Source: a virus
Length of the DNA: 51,158 bases
Reading direction: 5' to 3' (one strand)
IMG/VR virus record: IMGVR_UViG_3300019132_000034
Location: 1 to 51,158 of that record
In this document: positions 3,815 through 48,296 of the stretch, in pieces
Position numbering within the stretch: the first letter of the stretch is position 1
How the letters are laid out: the number at the start of each line of letters is the position of its first letter
Notes under the pieces: generated by a model
Databases searched by the model: none
Seen by the model: the letters and a program-made list of their open reading frames with translations, nothing else
What the model was told of the DNA's origin: nothing
Made by a program: the position numbers and the translations under genes

Positions 3815-4404
3815 AACGTTCGGAAAGTATTGCTAATATCGCAGCGGCCCTTTGTAAATTCCAGGCGGAATGTCCGGCACCAAAGAAAACTGCAGAAAAC
3901 CCGCATTTCAAAAGTAAATATTCACCGCTTGAAGAAATCATCAGCACGATCAAACCACACCTTTCAAAAAATGGACTCTCTTTCTTCCAATCCACGACCA
4001 CCGAGGGAGACAACATTTGCGTGACCACGCTTGTTCTTCACTCTAGCGGTGAGTATATCGAATCCGAACCGTTGAAACTCCCAATGGGGAAAATTACCGC
4101 ACAGGGCGCAGGAAGTGCGGTCACATATGCAAGACGTTATAGCTTATGTGCGGCGTTAGGGATAGCGGCAGAAGAAGATGATGATGGAAATGCCGCCACT
4201 GAGCAACCAAAAGCAAGTGACAAACAACTCAATTACATTGATTCTCTTCTCAGTAAAAAGGTGTCGGAAAAATTCACAAAAGAAGCATTGTATCAACATC
4301 TTAAACAACAACTCGGCACAGACAAAGAAATAGAGCATTGGACCGCAACCGAAGCGAGTCGAGCGATTGAAATTCTGACAGGGAGACAAAAGCAAGGGGC
4401 GTAA
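3811..4404 (+). CDS. ERF-family single-strand annealing recombinase
   Basis: Motifs IAAALCKFQAE...NPHFKSKYSPLEEI...GAGSAVTYARRYSL. The start is taken at the internal ATG that overlaps the upstream stop codon. Confidence 0.8.
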   Translation: MKRSESIANIAAALCKFQAECPAPKKTAENPHFKSKYSPLEEIISTIKPHLSKNGLSFFQSTTTEGDNICVTTLVLHSSGEYIESEPLKLPMGKITAQGAGSAVTYARRYSLCAALGIAAEEDDDGNAATEQPKASDKQLNYIDSLLSKKVSEKFTKEALYQHLKQQLGTDKEIEHWTATEASRAIEILTGRQKQGA

Positions 4405-4432
4405 TGCTCCTTGCGTTATAGGAGTGAGGGAA

Positions 4433-4549
4433 ATGGAGAAGAAATCGATGGATGAATTAATTGAGGAACTTGGTTGGTGGTGGTTTCCTTACTTGATTTT
4501 CGGCCTTATATTCGTGTTCCCAATGATAATTGCGGGGTGGATGGAATGA
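4433..4549 (+). CDS. Small membrane protein (38 aa)
   Basis: One hydrophobic helix (WWWFPYLIFGLIFVFPMIIAGW). An ATGA overlap joins it to the next ORF. Confidence 0.4.
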   Translation: MEKKSMDELIEELGWWWFPYLIFGLIFVFPMIIAGWME

Positions 4550-5798: not shown

Positions 5799-6506
5799 AT
5801 GAGTCAGTTACCACAAGTTTTCACTTATGGTGAAACACAGGTCAGAACCGTTGTTCAAGATGGGGAAGTCTGGTTTGTTGCGAAAGATGTGTGTGATGTT
5901 CTTGAGATAACGAATCCGACGATGGCACTTCAAAGATTAGATGAAGATGAACGGTCTAAATTCAATTTAGGTCGTCAAGGTGAAACCAATGTTGTGAACG
6001 AAGCTGGTCTTTACAGTTTGATTTTAGGCAGCAGAAAACCGGAAGCCAAACAATTCAAGCGATGGGTGACGCATGAGGTATTACCTTCCATTCGTAAACA
6101 TGGCGCATACATGACCGATGAAGTGTTAGAGCGTTCCATTCAAGACCCGGATTATATGATTGGTCTTTTAACCGCGCTAAAACAGGAGAGACAAAAGTGG
6201 TTAGAAGCAGAAAAAACGGTCAATATTCTCATGCATGTCAACAAGACCTATACCGCTACTGAGATCGCTAAAGAATTAGGATTCAAATCCGCTCAACAAC
6301 TCAACAAAGACTTAGAGAAGCGCAAAATTCAATATAATCAAAACGGTACATGGGTGTTATTCAGCAAATATGCAGATAAAGGATATGTAGAGATTAAGCA
6401 AGAGGTGCTGGATAACGGAAAAGTAATTTATCATCGCAGATTCACACAGAGCGGTCGAGAGTTTTTGCTCAAACTGTATGGGGTCCAGGAAAGCGAGACC
6501 GCATAA
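5799..6506 (+). CDS. Phage antirepressor (Bro-N plus KilAC domains)
   Basis: N-terminal VRTVVQDGEVWFVAKDVCDVLEI (Bro-N) and a C-terminal ANT/KilAC-like region (TATEIAKELGFKS...YADKGY). Confidence 0.8.
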   Translation: MSQLPQVFTYGETQVRTVVQDGEVWFVAKDVCDVLEITNPTMALQRLDEDERSKFNLGRQGETNVVNEAGLYSLILGSRKPEAKQFKRWVTHEVLPSIRKHGAYMTDEVLERSIQDPDYMIGLLTALKQERQKWLEAEKTVNILMHVNKTYTATEIAKELGFKSAQQLNKDLEKRKIQYNQNGTWVLFSKYADKGYVEIKQEVLDNGKVIYHRRFTQSGREFLLKLYGVQESETA

Positions 6507-43485: not shown

Positions 43486-44484
43486 ATGGGGTACTTATTT
43501 GAGAAACTTCCGCAACTTATAGATATGCGAGGAAAACTCCCAAAAAAAGGGCAGTATTCCATGCGAAACGGTGGAATCAAAGCGATTAGAACGAGGGTAT
43601 GGCATCATTCTCTAACAAAATTGAACTTAAAGGGCTCTAACGTAGAAGCATTTGCAAATTATCATGTAGGGACACATGGGTGGCCGGAAATTGGGTATAC
43701 CTTTGTGATTGATCCCAATAAAGTCGTAGACAATCGTGCTGCCATTTATTATTGCGTGGATATTGCTAAAAAATCCTATCATGTGGGAAATAGCAATAAC
43801 TTCTCGTTAGGTATTTGTGTGATTGGGGATTATCGATACGACCAACTATCTGAACCCGCTATGCGTTCGGTATCAGAATTACATGCCGCTCTTGTAGCCG
43901 ATGGAATTGGCCAAGAAGATAAATCCCATCATGAAATGCCGGGATATAGTTGGAAAGAATGTTGTGTTTATAACTACCGAAAAGCCATCCAATGGAAGGG
44001 GAACGTTACTCCATCTGCACCGACACCACTTCCGAACACCTATGTCATTCAGGAGGGGGATACATTCTGGAGTATTGCGAACAGAGATGGAGTTGGTGGG
44101 ATAACGGTAGAGGATTTGATTGCCGCTAATCCTGGAGTAGATCCTAGAAACCTTAAGGTCGGTCAGAGCATCAATCTAGGAAAGGCAAAACATGTGTTTA
44201 CCCGTAATCCGGAGGAACCGAAAAAGCCGCAGTCCTCCTATCGTTTCCCTTTACCGAGCGGGGTTTTACGAAAAGGAGACCGGGGGGATAAGGTTAAACA
44301 ACTTCAGAGAGCGCTCGATACTGTTCACTTCCGCCCAGGAACAATTGATGGAATATATGGTTCAAAGACTGAGGATGCGGTCAAACGATTCCAATCGGTA
44401 TATATACCGTATCAAGTAGATGGCATTTATGGACCGAAAACAGCGGAAAAGCTAAAAGCGGTGCTAAAATCAAAAGGTTATTAG
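43486..44484 (+). CDS. Endolysin: N-acetylmuramoyl-L-alanine amidase plus LysM and PG_binding_1 domains
   Basis: Amidase_2 motifs (WHHSLT...YHVG.HGWPEIGYTFVI...YHVGNSNNFSLGICV), LysM (YVIQEGDTFWSIA) and PG-binding repeats (DGIYGSKTEDAVKRFQ). RBS GAAGGAGG. Confidence 0.9.
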   Translation: MGYLFEKLPQLIDMRGKLPKKGQYSMRNGGIKAIRTRVWHHSLTKLNLKGSNVEAFANYHVGTHGWPEIGYTFVIDPNKVVDNRAAIYYCVDIAKKSYHVGNSNNFSLGICVIGDYRYDQLSEPAMRSVSELHAALVADGIGQEDKSHHEMPGYSWKECCVYNYRKAIQWKGNVTPSAPTPLPNTYVIQEGDTFWSIANRDGVGGITVEDLIAANPGVDPRNLKVGQSINLGKAKHVFTRNPEEPKKPQSSYRFPLPSGVLRKGDRGDKVKQLQRALDTVHFRPGTIDGIYGSKTEDAVKRFQSVYIPYQVDGIYGPKTAEKLKAVLKSKGY

Positions 44485-44493
44485 GCCTTGAGC

Positions 44494-44525
44494 ATCCCTG
44501 TCGATTGACAGGGATTTTTTATTTT
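44494..44525 (+). terminator. Intrinsic terminator after the lysis cassette
   Basis: ATCCCTGTC/GACAGGGAT stem and a T-run. Confidence 0.8.
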
Positions 44526-44610
44526 TGGGGGATGTTTTTCTTGATACCTATTTACAATTGTAAATGGTTTTGGTATAATATAATCAGAAAGGAGGTGAAC
44601 AAAGAGGGGG

Positions 44611-44736
44611 ATGAAATGGCTCGACATAATTGAAAAACTATGTAGCATCGCAGGATTCGCAATATCGCTCATAGTTTTTCTAGAAGGAAAAAAGAAAAAT
44701 AAAAAGCGACGCTTCCAAAAGAAACGTCGCAAATAA
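44611..44736 (+). CDS. 41-aa peptide with one TM helix and a poly-basic tail
   Basis: MKWLDIIEKLCSIAGFAISLIVFLEGKKKNKKRRFQKKRRK. AGGAGGTG and GAGGGGG lie upstream. A stable UUCG-loop hairpin follows at 44747-44772. Confidence 0.4.
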   Translation: MKWLDIIEKLCSIAGFAISLIVFLEGKKKNKKRRFQKKRRK

Positions 44737-44803
44737 CCCAGAAACGGAAGCCCAACCTTCGGGAAGGGCTTCTGTAAAAAAATCATATCATCTCCCTTAG
44801 TAT

Positions 44804-44977
44804 ATGTCAAAATTAGCATGGTTAGCCAACATTCTGTTAGCGTTTGTAGCGGTACGATTTTTCATGACCACCGATTTTACCAATATGGGTGTTTTAGATA
44901 TCGTACTACTCGTCATGATAGTGGGATGGTTCTTAGCAGGAATTAGCTATATGGTTTCACACTTCCGTAGCAGATAA
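44804..44977 (+). CDS. 57-aa two-helix membrane peptide
   Basis: Hydrophobic ORF (LANILLAFVAV...LDIVLLVMIVGWFLAGISYMV). No clear RBS. Confidence 0.3.
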   Translation: MSKLAWLANILLAFVAVRFFMTTDFTNMGVLDIVLLVMIVGWFLAGISYMVSHFRSR

Positions 44978-44989
44978 GGAGGCTATACA

Positions 44990-45238
44990 ATGCAATATCA
45001 TCTCCGCTCCCGTGAAGAGGTGGAGGACTTCATTAAAAATGAGGTCCTCACCACGTCTGAGGTTGTAGAAATGTTGGGAGTTACACGGCAGAGGGTAAGT
45101 CAACTGATCTCAAGTGGGAAATTGACTCCCGTGAAGAAACTTCGTGGTGACAGTCTGTTTTTACGTAGCGATATTTTGGAGAAGAAAAAAGAACTCGAGG
45201 TCCTGAGAAAGAAGTATCGACCGTATGACGAAGAATAG
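44990..45238 (+). CDS. Small HTH DNA-binding protein (excisionase/MerR-like HTH_17)
   Basis: LTTSEVVEMLGVTRQRVSQLISSGKL, with RBS AAGGAGG. Confidence 0.65.
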   Translation: MQYHLRSREEVEDFIKNEVLTTSEVVEMLGVTRQRVSQLISSGKLTPVKKLRGDSLFLRSDILEKKKELEVLRKKYRPYDEE

Positions 45239-45245
45239 ATATTAA

Positions 45246-45276
45246 AATTCCTGGCAAATGCCAGGGAATTTTTATT
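45246..45276 (+). terminator. Intrinsic terminator between the HTH gene and cas12f
   Basis: AATTCCTGGC/GCCAGGGAATT stem and a T-run. Confidence 0.7.
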
Positions 45277-45343
45277 GTTAGAAGGAGTTTGAAAATAAAT
45301 ATTGAATAAAATAATTATCTTATAAAAGGAGAACGCTCTAGTT

Positions 45344-46615
45344 ATGAAACATACCAAAGTCATGCGGTACCAAATTGTTAAACCACTTGATACAGAATGG
45401 TCGACATTCGGAACGGTTCTTCGAGAAATACAGAAGGAAACCCGCGTTGCACTTAATAAAACGATTCAGTTATGTTGGGAATATCAAGGATTTAGTGCGG
45501 ACTATAAGTTTATACATGGGAAGTATCCTAGAAAAATGGATGTTCTAAGATACACAAGTATGCACGGCTATGCCTATAAGCGTTTGAAACCTGAGTTTAC
45601 CAAAATTGCGTCTGGCAATCTTGCACAAACTATAAAGAGAGCGGTAGACAAATGGAACAGCGATGTAAAAGAAATCTCGCGTGGGGAACGTTCTATACCA
45701 AGTTTCAAAAAAGATTGCCCAATCGATGTTGTGAAAAAGTCTATGAAACTAAAGAAATCCGGTGATGGTTATATCCTTAGCCTAAGCTTAATAAACAGAG
45801 AGTATACTAGTGAATTAGGGCGGAAAAATGGTGTATTTGATGTTTTTATAAGGGCTAATGATAAATCCCAACAAACAATTCTAGACCGAATATTAGAAGG
45901 AGAATACATCTTTACGGCGTCCCAAATTCTGAATCATAAAAACAAATGGTTTATTAATCTCACTTATCAATTTGAATCACAAGAAGTTACCTTGGATCCT
46001 AACAATGTGATGGGAGTAGATTTAGGGATTGTCTATCCGGTTTATATCGCATTCAATAATAGCCTACATCGATACCACATTAAAGGTGGAGAAATCGAGC
46101 GATTCAGACAACAGGTGGAAAAACGAAAAAAGGAATTATTGGAGCAAGGGAAATACTGTGGTGATGGACGAAAAGGACATGGGTATGCAACGAGGACCAA
46201 ATCTGTTGCATCCATTCGTGATAAAATTGCAAGGTTCCGTAATACCTGCAATCACAAGTATTCACGGTTCATCATCGACATGGCTATCAAACATAAATGT
46301 GGTACAATTCAAATGGAGGATTTAACAGGGATCAGTCAAGAAAGTACTTTTTTAAAGAACTGGCCATACTATGATCTTCAACAAAAAATTGAATATAAGG
46401 CAAAAGAAGCGGGGATACAAATCATTAAGGTAGATCCAAGCTATACTTCGCAGCGTTGTAGCAAGTGTGGTAATATTAATAGGAAAAATAGACAAGAGCA
46501 ATCCGTCTTTCTATGCGGGAAATGTGGTTTTGAAACCAATGCGGATTACAATGCATCGAGAAACATTGCAATACCTCGAATCGATCAAATCATTAAGGAA
46601 ACATTAGCAAAATAA
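45344..46615 (+). CDS. cas12f: Cas12f-like (type V-F, TnpB-derived) miniature RNA-guided nuclease
   Basis: RuvC-I (VMGVDLGIV), RuvC-II (GTIQMEDLTG), a CSKCG...CGKCG zinc ribbon and RuvC-III (ETNADYNASRNIA). The N-terminus YQIVKPLD..W..FGT.LR..Q.ETR.ALNK matches the AsCas12f1 sequence as I remember it. A CRISPR array lies 290 nt downstream. Confidence 0.8.
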   Translation: MKHTKVMRYQIVKPLDTEWSTFGTVLREIQKETRVALNKTIQLCWEYQGFSADYKFIHGKYPRKMDVLRYTSMHGYAYKRLKPEFTKIASGNLAQTIKRAVDKWNSDVKEISRGERSIPSFKKDCPIDVVKKSMKLKKSGDGYILSLSLINREYTSELGRKNGVFDVFIRANDKSQQTILDRILEGEYIFTASQILNHKNKWFINLTYQFESQEVTLDPNNVMGVDLGIVYPVYIAFNNSLHRYHIKGGEIERFRQQVEKRKKELLEQGKYCGDGRKGHGYATRTKSVASIRDKIARFRNTCNHKYSRFIIDMAIKHKCGTIQMEDLTGISQESTFLKNWPYYDLQQKIEYKAKEAGIQIIKVDPSYTSQRCSKCGNINRKNRQEQSVFLCGKCGFETNADYNASRNIAIPRIDQIIKETLAK

Positions 46616-46621
46616 AAAATA

Positions 46622-46806
46622 GCTCTGGGGCGATTCAGCGTCCTTAAGTCGAGAAGTGCCGTGTACAGCGTCTTGGTCTAGCGGTAACACTCGATAAGGT
46701 AGTCCTGTCTAACAGGCTGAAACCCTAGCCACAAAATCCGGCTAGGCATCATACATAGAAAGTCGTCGATCTACAATCGTGCAAAAACCTAGGGGGATCG
46801 ACGACA
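46622..46806 (+). ncRNA. Candidate tracrRNA / guide scaffold
   Basis: Stems CCTAGCC/GGCTAGG (46724-46746) and GTCGTCGATC/GATCGACGAC (46762-46805). The anti-repeat CATCATACATAG (46747-46758) pairs with repeat positions 14-25, with one G-U pair. Confidence 0.5.
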
Positions 46807-46905
46807 GGGATAATGTCAACGATAACAAGGTTTATGAGGATTTGTAGAAGGGAATTTTATATCTCCGGTACTTGATAAGGTGTTGCTACATCAACACTTT
46901 TTGGG

Positions 46906-47136
46906 GTTTCTGAGGAAACTATGTGTGATGTGAAGCGGGCGATTTTGACGAGTTTGATTATGTTTAAGTCGTTTCTGAGGAAACTATGTGTGATGTGAAG
47001 CAATCAGAGAAAAGGATGCTATTTGGTTTGATATTGTGTGTTTCTGAGGAAACTATGTGTGATGTGAAGATACGGTTTTCAGTGAGTTTATATCCAAGAA
47101 AAATAGGTTTCTAAGGAAACTATGTGTGATGTGAAG
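46906..47136 (+). CRISPR. CRISPR array: 4 copies of a 30-nt repeat (GTTTCTGAGGAAACTATGTGTGATGTGAAG) and 3 spacers (35, 39 and 37 nt)
   Basis: Repeats lie at 46906, 46971, 47040 and 47107. The first three are identical and the last has one G-to-A change. The spacers are unique. Confidence 0.9.
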
Positions 47137-47198
47137 ACTTCCCTATTGTGGTCATGGATACTAGATGCAAAAATAATAATGAGAATTTTTTTGAAATA

Positions 47199-47229
47199 AA
47201 AACCCCTTCTCACTTGAGAAAGGGGTTCT
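47199..47229 (-). terminator. Terminator of the TM2 gene; its hairpin also closes the CRISPR locus
   Basis: AACCCCTTCTC/GAGAAAGGGGTT stem with a T-run on the minus strand. Confidence 0.7.
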
Positions 47230-47234
47230 ATGTA

Positions 47235-47561
47235 TTATACAGCCGAATCATTTTTTTGTGCACTTCTCAACACTCTGATTTCCTCAATAATTTTCCGCTC
47301 AATTTCCTCATGGGTTTTACGAATCATGCTATTTAGTAAAAATAAGTCAATTAATGTCCAAATTCCCAAACAACCGAGCGTTAATGTCATAGCAATCGCT
47401 GTACCGATTTTTCCTAAATAATAGCGATGTCCGCCAATTCCACCTGTAAAAAACCACAATAGCCAGGTAACTCCCGTAGATTTTTTTCTTTTCTCCATTT
47501 CGGTTGACAAAATTTGCAATTCTTGCGTATTCAAATCGTGCTTAGATAAAATACTACTCAT
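47235..47561 (-). CDS. TM2-domain membrane protein
   Basis: WLLWFFTGGIGGHRYYLGK...GCLGIWTLIDLF is the TM2 signature. The start is at MSSILSK, after AAGGAG. Confidence 0.7.
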   Translation of the reverse strand: MSSILSKHDLNTQELQILSTEMEKRKKSTGVTWLLWFFTGGIGGHRYYLGKIGTAIAMTLTLGCLGIWTLIDLFLLNSMIRKTHEEIERKIIEEIRVLRSAQKNDSAV

Positions 47562-47690
47562 GATGAACACTCCTTGTATTTGGTAATCATGGATATATAT
47601 TACTATATTATCCTGTTAATTTCTACAAGTATTTTAGGGTATAAGTTTAGTCCGTTTTGTCTATCCTAACGATGAAAAGGAGTGGAGAAG

Positions 47691-48296
47691 ATGTTATTTG
47701 CATTAGAACTTGCTTTTGGAATCATTGTATTAATCGCTGCTATTCATTTCTGGATCACAAAAAGACAACATGAATATAAAACCATGCTGATTACCGATCA
47801 GATGGAACACAGCCTGGAAATAAAAATGACTTTGGCGATGGGTTTATATATGCGATTTTGTAAGGAAAAAGACGACAAACCGCCTAGATACTCCAAAATC
47901 TACATCAAGCAGAATCCGTTGCAATTTGAAACCTTTTGCGCAAAGGTCATGGAAGAAAAATACGGGGGAACTACGTGGGTTTCTCCTGCTTCCGGTGATT
48001 TTGGGGTGGACTTTGAACACCGCAGGGACGATGGGTTGTATTTAGGTCAGGTGAAATGCTACGAAGGTGATTTACCTTATGATCCAATAGCAAAATTACA
48101 TTCGAACATGGTGAAAAGTGGCGCAGTCGGTGGATATGTCATTACGACAGGAAGCTTTAGTGACAACGCTCGAAAATTTGCTGAAGGTTTAAATATCGAA
48201 CTCATTGACGGCGTGAAACTTGTGGAATATTGGATTGACGGACTAAAGGAAACGGAAAATGCGATTGCTGAGTGGAAAGAAGCCCCTACGATTTAG
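47691..48296 (+). CDS. Membrane-anchored Mrr-cat-type restriction endonuclease-domain protein
   Basis: An N-terminal TM helix, then FETFCAKVME..Y......SGDFGVDFE....GLYLGQVKCY...GYVITTGSFSDNARKFA...IELIDG. Confidence 0.65.
   Translation: MLFALELAFGIIVLIAAIHFWITKRQHEYKTMLITDQMEHSLEIKMTLAMGLYMRFCKEKDDKPPRYSKIYIKQNPLQFETFCAKVMEEKYGGTTWVSPASGDFGVDFEHRRDDGLYLGQVKCYEGDLPYDPIAKLHSNMVKSGAVGGYVITTGSFSDNARKFAEGLNIELIDGVKLVEYWIDGLKETENAIAEWKEAPTI

Follow-up and report, generated by a model that had tools for sequence, protein, structure and literature searches.

The closest described counterpart of the RNA discussed here is the tracrRNA of AsCas12f1 from Acidibacillus sulfuroxidans (8J12, 7WJU, 8DZJ). 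Its coding region lies between cas12f1 and the array; a 169-nt form was recovered from the purified RNP and has been used in active sgRNAs (PMC8548392). AsCas12f employs both a long and a short repeat:anti-repeat duplex, of which the short pairing is essential (PMC11246509). The distal part of the long duplex is flexible and dispensable, and was removed from the AsCas12f sgRNA with no loss of activity (AsCas12f structure paper). The nearest characterised effector, PtCas12f1 from Parageobacillus thermoglucosidasius, cleaved dsDNA in a PAM-library assay, and the minimal locus that was used included a putative tracrRNA region (PMC7229846); the literature searched yielded no mapped Pt tracrRNA. 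Adaptation in trans has been described for CRISPR loci that have no Cas1 and Cas2 of their own, one example being type VI-A in Listeria seeligeri (bioRxiv 10.1101/2024.10.25.620265).

The phage locus and its effector gene

The window, i.e., the whole stretch of DNA that was analysed, is an IMG/VR record of 51,158 bp that represents a complete virus genome with direct terminal repeats. The phage is temperate, and encodes a large serine integrase, terminase, portal, head proteins, tape measure, tail fibre, holin and endolysin. The Cas12f locus is found directly 3' of the lysis genes, amid accessory genes for an HTH protein, a TM2 protein, an Mrr-like nuclease and an FtsK-like ATPase. The immediate neighbours are a small HTH_17 protein (44990-45238), a TM2-domain membrane protein (47235-47570, minus strand) and an Mrr-type restriction endonuclease (47682-48296), and these three genes form an accessory, or defence-type, cluster between the lysis cassette and the FtsK-like and replication-relaxation genes. 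Searches across the phage found neither cas1 nor cas2, and likewise no cas4 or cas6 accompanies the array. The gene, the RNA and the array are all on the plus strand, with the RNA in the middle (Table 1). A PtCas12f-like locus that is 80% identical and has a near-identical tracrRNA is found at one end of a viral contig of ~52 kb (IMGVR_UViG_2840006664_000003, 52,054 bp; L008/L013). Because that locus, too, sits on a viral contig, temperate phages of thermophilic Bacillaceae seem to be the vehicles of the Cas12f sub-clade represented in the window.

By its sequence, the 423-aa ORF is an intact Cas12f1 of the As/Pt clade. A structure-database search aligned its residues 4-421 with AsCas12f chains in PDB (E 8e-156), with the catalytic motifs and the zinc ribbon in register, and the Pfam family Cas12f1-like_TNB is matched at 9e-26. 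The structure search itself reported no identity value; the protein encoded at the As locus, which we located in an Alicyclobacillales genome (L014), is 56% identical to the effector from the window. The closest database relatives, P0002 and P0003, are about 81% identical to it and are nearly the same as the published PtCas12f1 sequence.

The terminator scan found no terminator-like sites on the plus strand between 45268 and 47203, and we infer from this that cas12f, tracrRNA and the array are perhaps made as one transcript, which would be processed later. A consensus scan, which included the end of cas12f, produced no convincing promoter for either the tracrRNA or the array. In Nanhaiella sioensis (L003:2249-2933), tracrRNA, leader and array are all located upstream of cas12f, so the tracrRNA need not be a product of the cas12f 3' UTR.

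Table 1. Coordinates of the features of the Cas12f locus (positions in the window).
Feature	Position	Strand	Description
Terminator	45248-45267		Just 5' of the promoter candidate
Sigma-70-like promoter candidate for the cas12f-tracrRNA-array unit	45289-45318	+	Consensus match alone, 9/12
cas12f1 gene	45344-46615	+	423 aa; RuvC D-E-D residues and CxxC...CxxC zinc ribbon intact
Predicted mature tracrRNA	46617-46780	+	About 164 nt; ends set by homology to the 169-nt RNP-bound AsCas12f tracrRNA
Stem 1	46627-46644	+	6 bp (46627-46632 / 46639-46644), 6-nt loop; compensatory changes in 5/6 pairs, 96.7% of cells paired in 16 sequences
Short anti-repeat (R:AR-2, pseudoknot)	46634-46637	+	UUCA in the stem-1 loop; pairs with repeat positions 26-29 (UGAA)
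Stem 2	46648-46695	+	Proximal helix 46648-46653 / 46690-46695; GAGAAG triplex platform; distal helix 46657-46662 / 46681-46686; covarying
Stem 3	46702-46717	+	Short, length-variable; includes CCTGT/ACAGG (46704-46708 / 46712-46716); compensatory changes in 5/5 pairs, 81% of cells paired
Stem 4	46724-46746	+	7 bp, CCTAGCC/GGCTAGG (46724-46730 / 46740-46746), 9-nt loop; compensatory changes in 7/7 pairs, 96.4% of cells paired
Long anti-repeat (R:AR-1)	46747-46758	+	12 nt, pairs with repeat positions 14-25; proximal part of the long repeat:anti-repeat duplex
Distal leader hairpin	46762-46805	+	10-bp stem (46762-46771 / 46796-46805), conserved 24-nt loop; tracrRNA 3' end in the loop by homology
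Rest of the CRISPR leader	46806-46905	+	Leader-proximal inverted repeat, T-run and GGG junction at 46880-46905
CRISPR array	46906-47136	+	Four 30-nt repeats at 46906, 46971, 47040 and 47107; three spacers of 35, 39 and 37 nt
GC-rich terminator hairpin closing the locus	47203-47224		Scored on the minus strand by the scan

Homology and structure of the tracrRNA

An initial annotation of the DNA regarded the 290 nt between cas12f and the array as non-coding, unusually GC-rich and stem-rich, and proposed positions 46622-46905 as a candidate tracrRNA region. The interval is indeed non-coding, with no ORF of at least 60 aa and only chance ORFs of 20-48 aa. Elevated GC content is a property of the tracrRNA core (46623-46759, 51%), whereas the 290 nt as a whole have only 45%, compared to 40% in the phage. 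All of the stems that had been listed are there, but the fold energy of the interval is weak evidence and unremarkable when taken alone (z = -1.74; an equally good fold was reached by 11 of 200 shuffles). The proposed 12-nt anti-repeat does form 11 Watson-Crick pairs and one G-U pair with the repeat and begins, as claimed, directly after the CCTAGCC/GGCTAGG stem. A duplex of at least 12 nt with no more than one G-U pair was seen in 5 of 2000 shuffles of the interval and in none of 690 other segments of 290 nt taken from the two strands of the phage.

Homology in sequence and structure to the AsCas12f tracrRNA, together with covariation in the stems and anti-repeats, bears out the tracrRNA reading. 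These comparisons support the conclusion that the interval encodes a type V-F1 (formerly V-U3/C2c10) Cas12f tracrRNA, orthologous to the AsCas12f/PtCas12f tracrRNA. The published As sgRNA sequence is the same as the minus-strand interval of L014, except for one A that is missing from the supplement text, and its alignment with the window begins at 46617, takes in all stems and extends across the 10-bp hairpin. The intervals from Thermaerobacillus, Laceyella, Nanhaiella and Alicyclobacillus loci align over the same span. The transcript ends at 46617 and 46780 are predictions, extrapolated from the RNA of another species that was expressed in E. coli.

In a plain MAFFT alignment of seven sequences, the three best-aligned helices are 95.6% paired and contain 13 compensatory pairs; none of 500 shuffles was as good, and pairing fell to about 35% once the partners were slid relative to each other. 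An alignment of 16 sequences gives 92.6% pairing over the four stems, with compensatory changes in 28 of the 31 pairs, although this larger alignment was fitted to the model structure and its pairing is somewhat inflated, a bias that the seven-sequence alignment does not have. We also built a covariance model (R1) across the homologous loci, a check that the initial annotation had suggested, and it has a single match in the window, at 46623-46759 on the plus strand (123 bits, E 9e-28). A scan of 44000-48000 against Rfam (E up to 1) found no family; R1 finds this RNA, which no Rfam family covers, beside every cas12f homologue fetched, either upstream or downstream of the gene. No match was seen in 30 type I-B-family leader loci, and the sole match in the 31-locus set (101 kb) is in L050. 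The possibility of an antisense RNA was rejected, as the model matches the plus strand only and the pairing of the antisense strand with the repeat reaches 6 nt at most. The tracrRNA itself is ordinary, and is what would be expected in the As/Pt-type Cas12f clade.

The two 3' stems, CCTGT/ACAGG and CCTAGCC/GGCTAGG, had been recognised correctly, but stem 1, the large stem 2 and the second anti-repeat, which forms a pseudoknot from the stem-1 loop, had been missed. The text that describes the As structure names the nucleotides involved in base triples, a quadruple and one tertiary pair, and the numbering that we used reproduces 26 of the 26 named residues. All 18 As tertiary-core partners are identical in the window, and all three flipped-out nucleotides differ. 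In particular, stem 2 keeps the triplex nucleotides G29, A30, A31, G32, C63 and C65, with a change at the flipped-out G64; stem 3 is flanked by the same GUA and GAA triplex nucleotides as in As; and the triple-forming nucleotides in the loop of stem 4 are likewise the same, with changes at the two flipped-out ones. By analogy to AsCas12f, there would be two coaxial helices, one made up of stem 1 and the pseudoknot, the other of stems 3 and 4 together with the long duplex, and a Cas12f dimer would bind one tracrRNA:crRNA pair and cut PAM-flanked dsDNA.

The long anti-repeat covaries with the repeat of its own locus in L001, L002, L009, L011 and L014. Pairing between the stem-1 loop and the 3' end of the repeat amounts to 4-5 bp within the same locus in 10 of 11 loci, by means of seven different sequence pairs, compared to a mean of 2.5 bp across loci. 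At position 46633 of the window, A is opposite G at repeat position 30, and the same is seen in L001, L002 and L003; in As these positions make a fifth, G-C pair, and the pseudoknot is therefore one pair shorter in the sub-clade of the window. Positions 1-14 of the repeat fold into a hairpin of their own instead of pairing with the tracrRNA, and the only change within the 30-nt repeats, at 47113, is in the loop of that hairpin. A long duplex of 12 nt is plausible as part of a working guide because the distal part of the As duplex is flexible and dispensable. Such a natural scaffold with a short version of the long duplex would provide the design of miniature editors with a second starting point, one that comes from a thermophile. 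The three spacers (46936-47106) have no match in GenBank phages by blastn, and their exact 22-mers are absent from IMG/VR.

The leader module and alternative readings of the interval

The less expected result, and the one worth following, concerns the last stem of the interval. The 10-bp stem is present as described, but it is not specific to the tracrRNA: on sequence evidence, it forms the distal hairpin of a leader like those at type I-B arrays of Bacillales, and it also occurs upstream of I-B-family arrays that have no tracrRNA. The candidate tracrRNA region of 46622-46905 has to be narrowed to about 46617-46780, and the last ~100 nt (46806-46905) are CRISPR leader.

A scan of IMG/VR with the exact pattern found the hairpin also beside other CRISPR arrays with no tracrRNA. 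The hairpin is found in 29 of 401 sampled genomes of Bacillales, the order that includes Thermaerobacillus, in 1-11 copies each, and a reversed control pattern was found in none. At 22 of the 30 loci that were fetched, an array with 30-nt repeats begins 120-155 nt downstream of the hairpin in the same orientation, and several of the remaining ones have leader remnants or degenerate repeats. From hairpin to first repeat there are 100 nt in the window and 87 nt in As, compared to the 120-155 nt of the I-B-family loci. The hairpin of L054 begins 15 nt downstream of cas6, at the end of an operon that reads cas8b-like, cas7b, cas5b, cas3, cas4, cas1b, cas2, cas6, and is followed by an array; cas1b scores above the NCBIfam cut-off, and a second copy of the hairpin heads the array on the other side. 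Alignment A5 indicates that the hairpin, the inverted repeat with the T-run and GGG junction, and parts of the repeat are common to V-F1 and I-B-family leaders. The same hairpin directly follows cas1 loci in the As and Alicyclobacillus genomes; a cas1 search found no such gene in the genomes of Thermaerobacillus and Laceyella. In the full-text literature, a search for the hairpin sequence retrieved unrelated papers only.

The 44-nt hairpin is a distal mark of CRISPR leaders in Bacillales (loci L021-L053 and L054). Candidate roles for it are a site for the integrase or a host factor, an insulator, and the 3' end of the RNA. Three other readings of elements in the leader were rejected. The hairpin with T-run at 46880-46903 is not a terminator between tracrRNA and array, since A5 identifies it as a conserved leader junction motif and the terminator scan was negative; inspection by eye also speaks against a -10/-35 promoter in the loop of the distal hairpin, where the spacing does not fit, and against pairing of this loop with the 5' end of the repeat, where the complementarity does not fit.

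The interval is very probably best explained as two abutting modules, a tracrRNA at about 46617-46780 and a CRISPR leader at 46762-46905. The main competing view is that one long tracrRNA fills the interval, with the 10-bp hairpin as an integral 3' domain of its scaffold. The As RNP-bound tracrRNA and the sgRNA derived from it do include the 5' arm of the hairpin and stop within its loop, and the hairpin, loop included, is kept in every As-clade Cas12f locus. Against this, the same hairpin and loop are found upstream of dozens of I-B-family arrays with no tracrRNA, and three distant Cas12f loci (L005, L009, L011) have a tracrRNA but not the hairpin. Moreover, the 171-nt scaffold of the active sgRNA_V1, which served for the structures, can be accounted for as 138 nt of tracrRNA, a 4-nt linker and 29 nt of repeat, an arithmetic of ours that would leave no room for the hairpin. 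We regard an integral scaffold hairpin as unlikely.

A decaying relic, in which the RNA fold is inherited from a system that the phage no longer uses, appears less probable still. There are only four repeats, the spacers have no matches in the databases searched, clear promoters for tracrRNA and array were not found, and decayed relatives exist, L050 among them; yet the ORF is full-length with its catalytic and zinc-binding motifs intact, all structurally critical nucleotides of the tracrRNA are kept, and both anti-repeats still match the repeats, with the lone repeat change confined to the loop of the repeat hairpin. We give the least credence, and very little at that, to a TnpB-type omega RNA, a scaffold with a cis-fused guide that serves a transposon. 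The effector does also match TnpB models, and the relatives in L004 and L017 are followed within ~20-40 nt by a single repeat-like unit. No such unit follows the scaffold in the window, where a separate array with unique spacers begins 147 nt downstream of the long anti-repeat and contains the pairing partners of both anti-repeats; neither transposon ends nor tnpA were seen nearby.

The two relatives just mentioned have unusual arrangements of their own. Alicyclobacillus macrosporangiidus (L004:945-1130, 2661-2935, 4296-4470 and 5842-5956) has three strong tracrRNA-like copies and one weak one with a single cas12f-like gene; a repeat-like unit is found within ~20 nt after each strong copy, and one copy leads into a three-repeat mini-array with spacers of ~18-21 nt. 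These copies resemble cis-fused, omega-RNA-like guides. In L017 (2815-3008, minus strand), a tracrRNA-like RNA converges on a cas12f-like gene that is 40% identical and is antisense to the end of that gene; no array was found there, and the RNA is fused at its downstream side to a hairpin and a repeat-like 3' unit.

Origin of the array, spacer supply and comparison with known systems

There are hints in these sequences that the V-F1 arrays with no Cas1 and Cas2 descend from host type I-B systems, and may be fed by them. A more detailed scenario is possible rather than probable. A TnpB-derived nuclease and its scaffold would have been grafted onto a Bacillales I-B leader-repeat module, so that V-F1 (ex V-U3) systems would not have evolved an array of their own and the tracrRNA gene would now end inside the distal hairpin of the leader. 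Host I-B Cas1-Cas2-Cas4 would load the Cas12f array, even on a prophage, and L050 would record how the early state looked. It is a matter of speculation that the shared leader was retained in such a way that the adaptation module of the host type I-B system feeds spacers into the Cas12f array. If so, the leader offers a testable route by which Cas12f arrays devoid of Cas1 and Cas2, here on a temperate phage, could gain spacers, and an insight into the way in which a nuclease of transposon origin came to have a CRISPR array.

L050 (1347-1690; G268:C25) is a decayed Cas12f locus, in which a 166-aa upstream ORF is followed by a tracrRNA-like RNA (70 bits), and then by the leader hairpin and an almost I-B-like repeat. 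Both anti-repeats match this almost unmodified I-B repeat, and the locus may record a Cas12f scaffold that had become adapted to a I-B array.

Among known tracrRNAs, that of AsCas12f1 has the same position between gene and array, the same strand and the same order of stems 1-4. The two RNAs also share the GAGAAG triplex platform, the triplex nucleotides of stems 3 and 4, and the pseudoknot of the stem-1 loop with the 3' end of the repeat. In both, stem 4 leads directly into the long anti-repeat, and the same hairpin comes next. They differ in the length of the long anti-repeat, 12 nt in the window and ~22 nt in As, in the 2-nt bulge between the long and short pairings, which the window does not have, and in the pseudoknot, which has 4 bp in the window compared to 5 in As. 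In the window, moreover, the 5' part of the repeat folds on itself, the tip of stem 2 and the length of stem 3 are different, and the system is phage-borne. Much closer are L001 and L008, where tracrRNA, leader and repeat are almost identical to those in the window; the repeat of L001 has A in the place of the G that makes the G-U pair, and the long anti-repeat of L001 is contiguous over 9 nt. Dual pairing with the repeat, through one long and one short duplex, is also a property of the tracrRNAs of Cas12b and Un1Cas12f1 (Cas14a1), where a pseudoknot involves the 3' end of the repeat (PMC11246509), but we detected no sequence homology between these tracrRNAs and the RNA from the window, and the stems of the Un1 scaffold are arranged differently.

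The type VI-A case provides the concept of adaptation in trans, in which an effector-only locus relies on a co-resident integrase; for the phage-borne array in the window, it is the host that would have to contribute the partner. Bacillales type I-B leaders, such as that of L054, share with the window the distal hairpin with its loop and orientation, the inverted repeat, the T-run and the GGG junction, although the canonical promoter of I-B leaders is degenerate in the window. The repeats of the window and of the I-B family are both 30 nt long, and have the same start and the same middle heptamer, but the 3' half of the repeat in the window, unlike that of the I-B-family repeat, is remodelled to pair with the tracrRNA.
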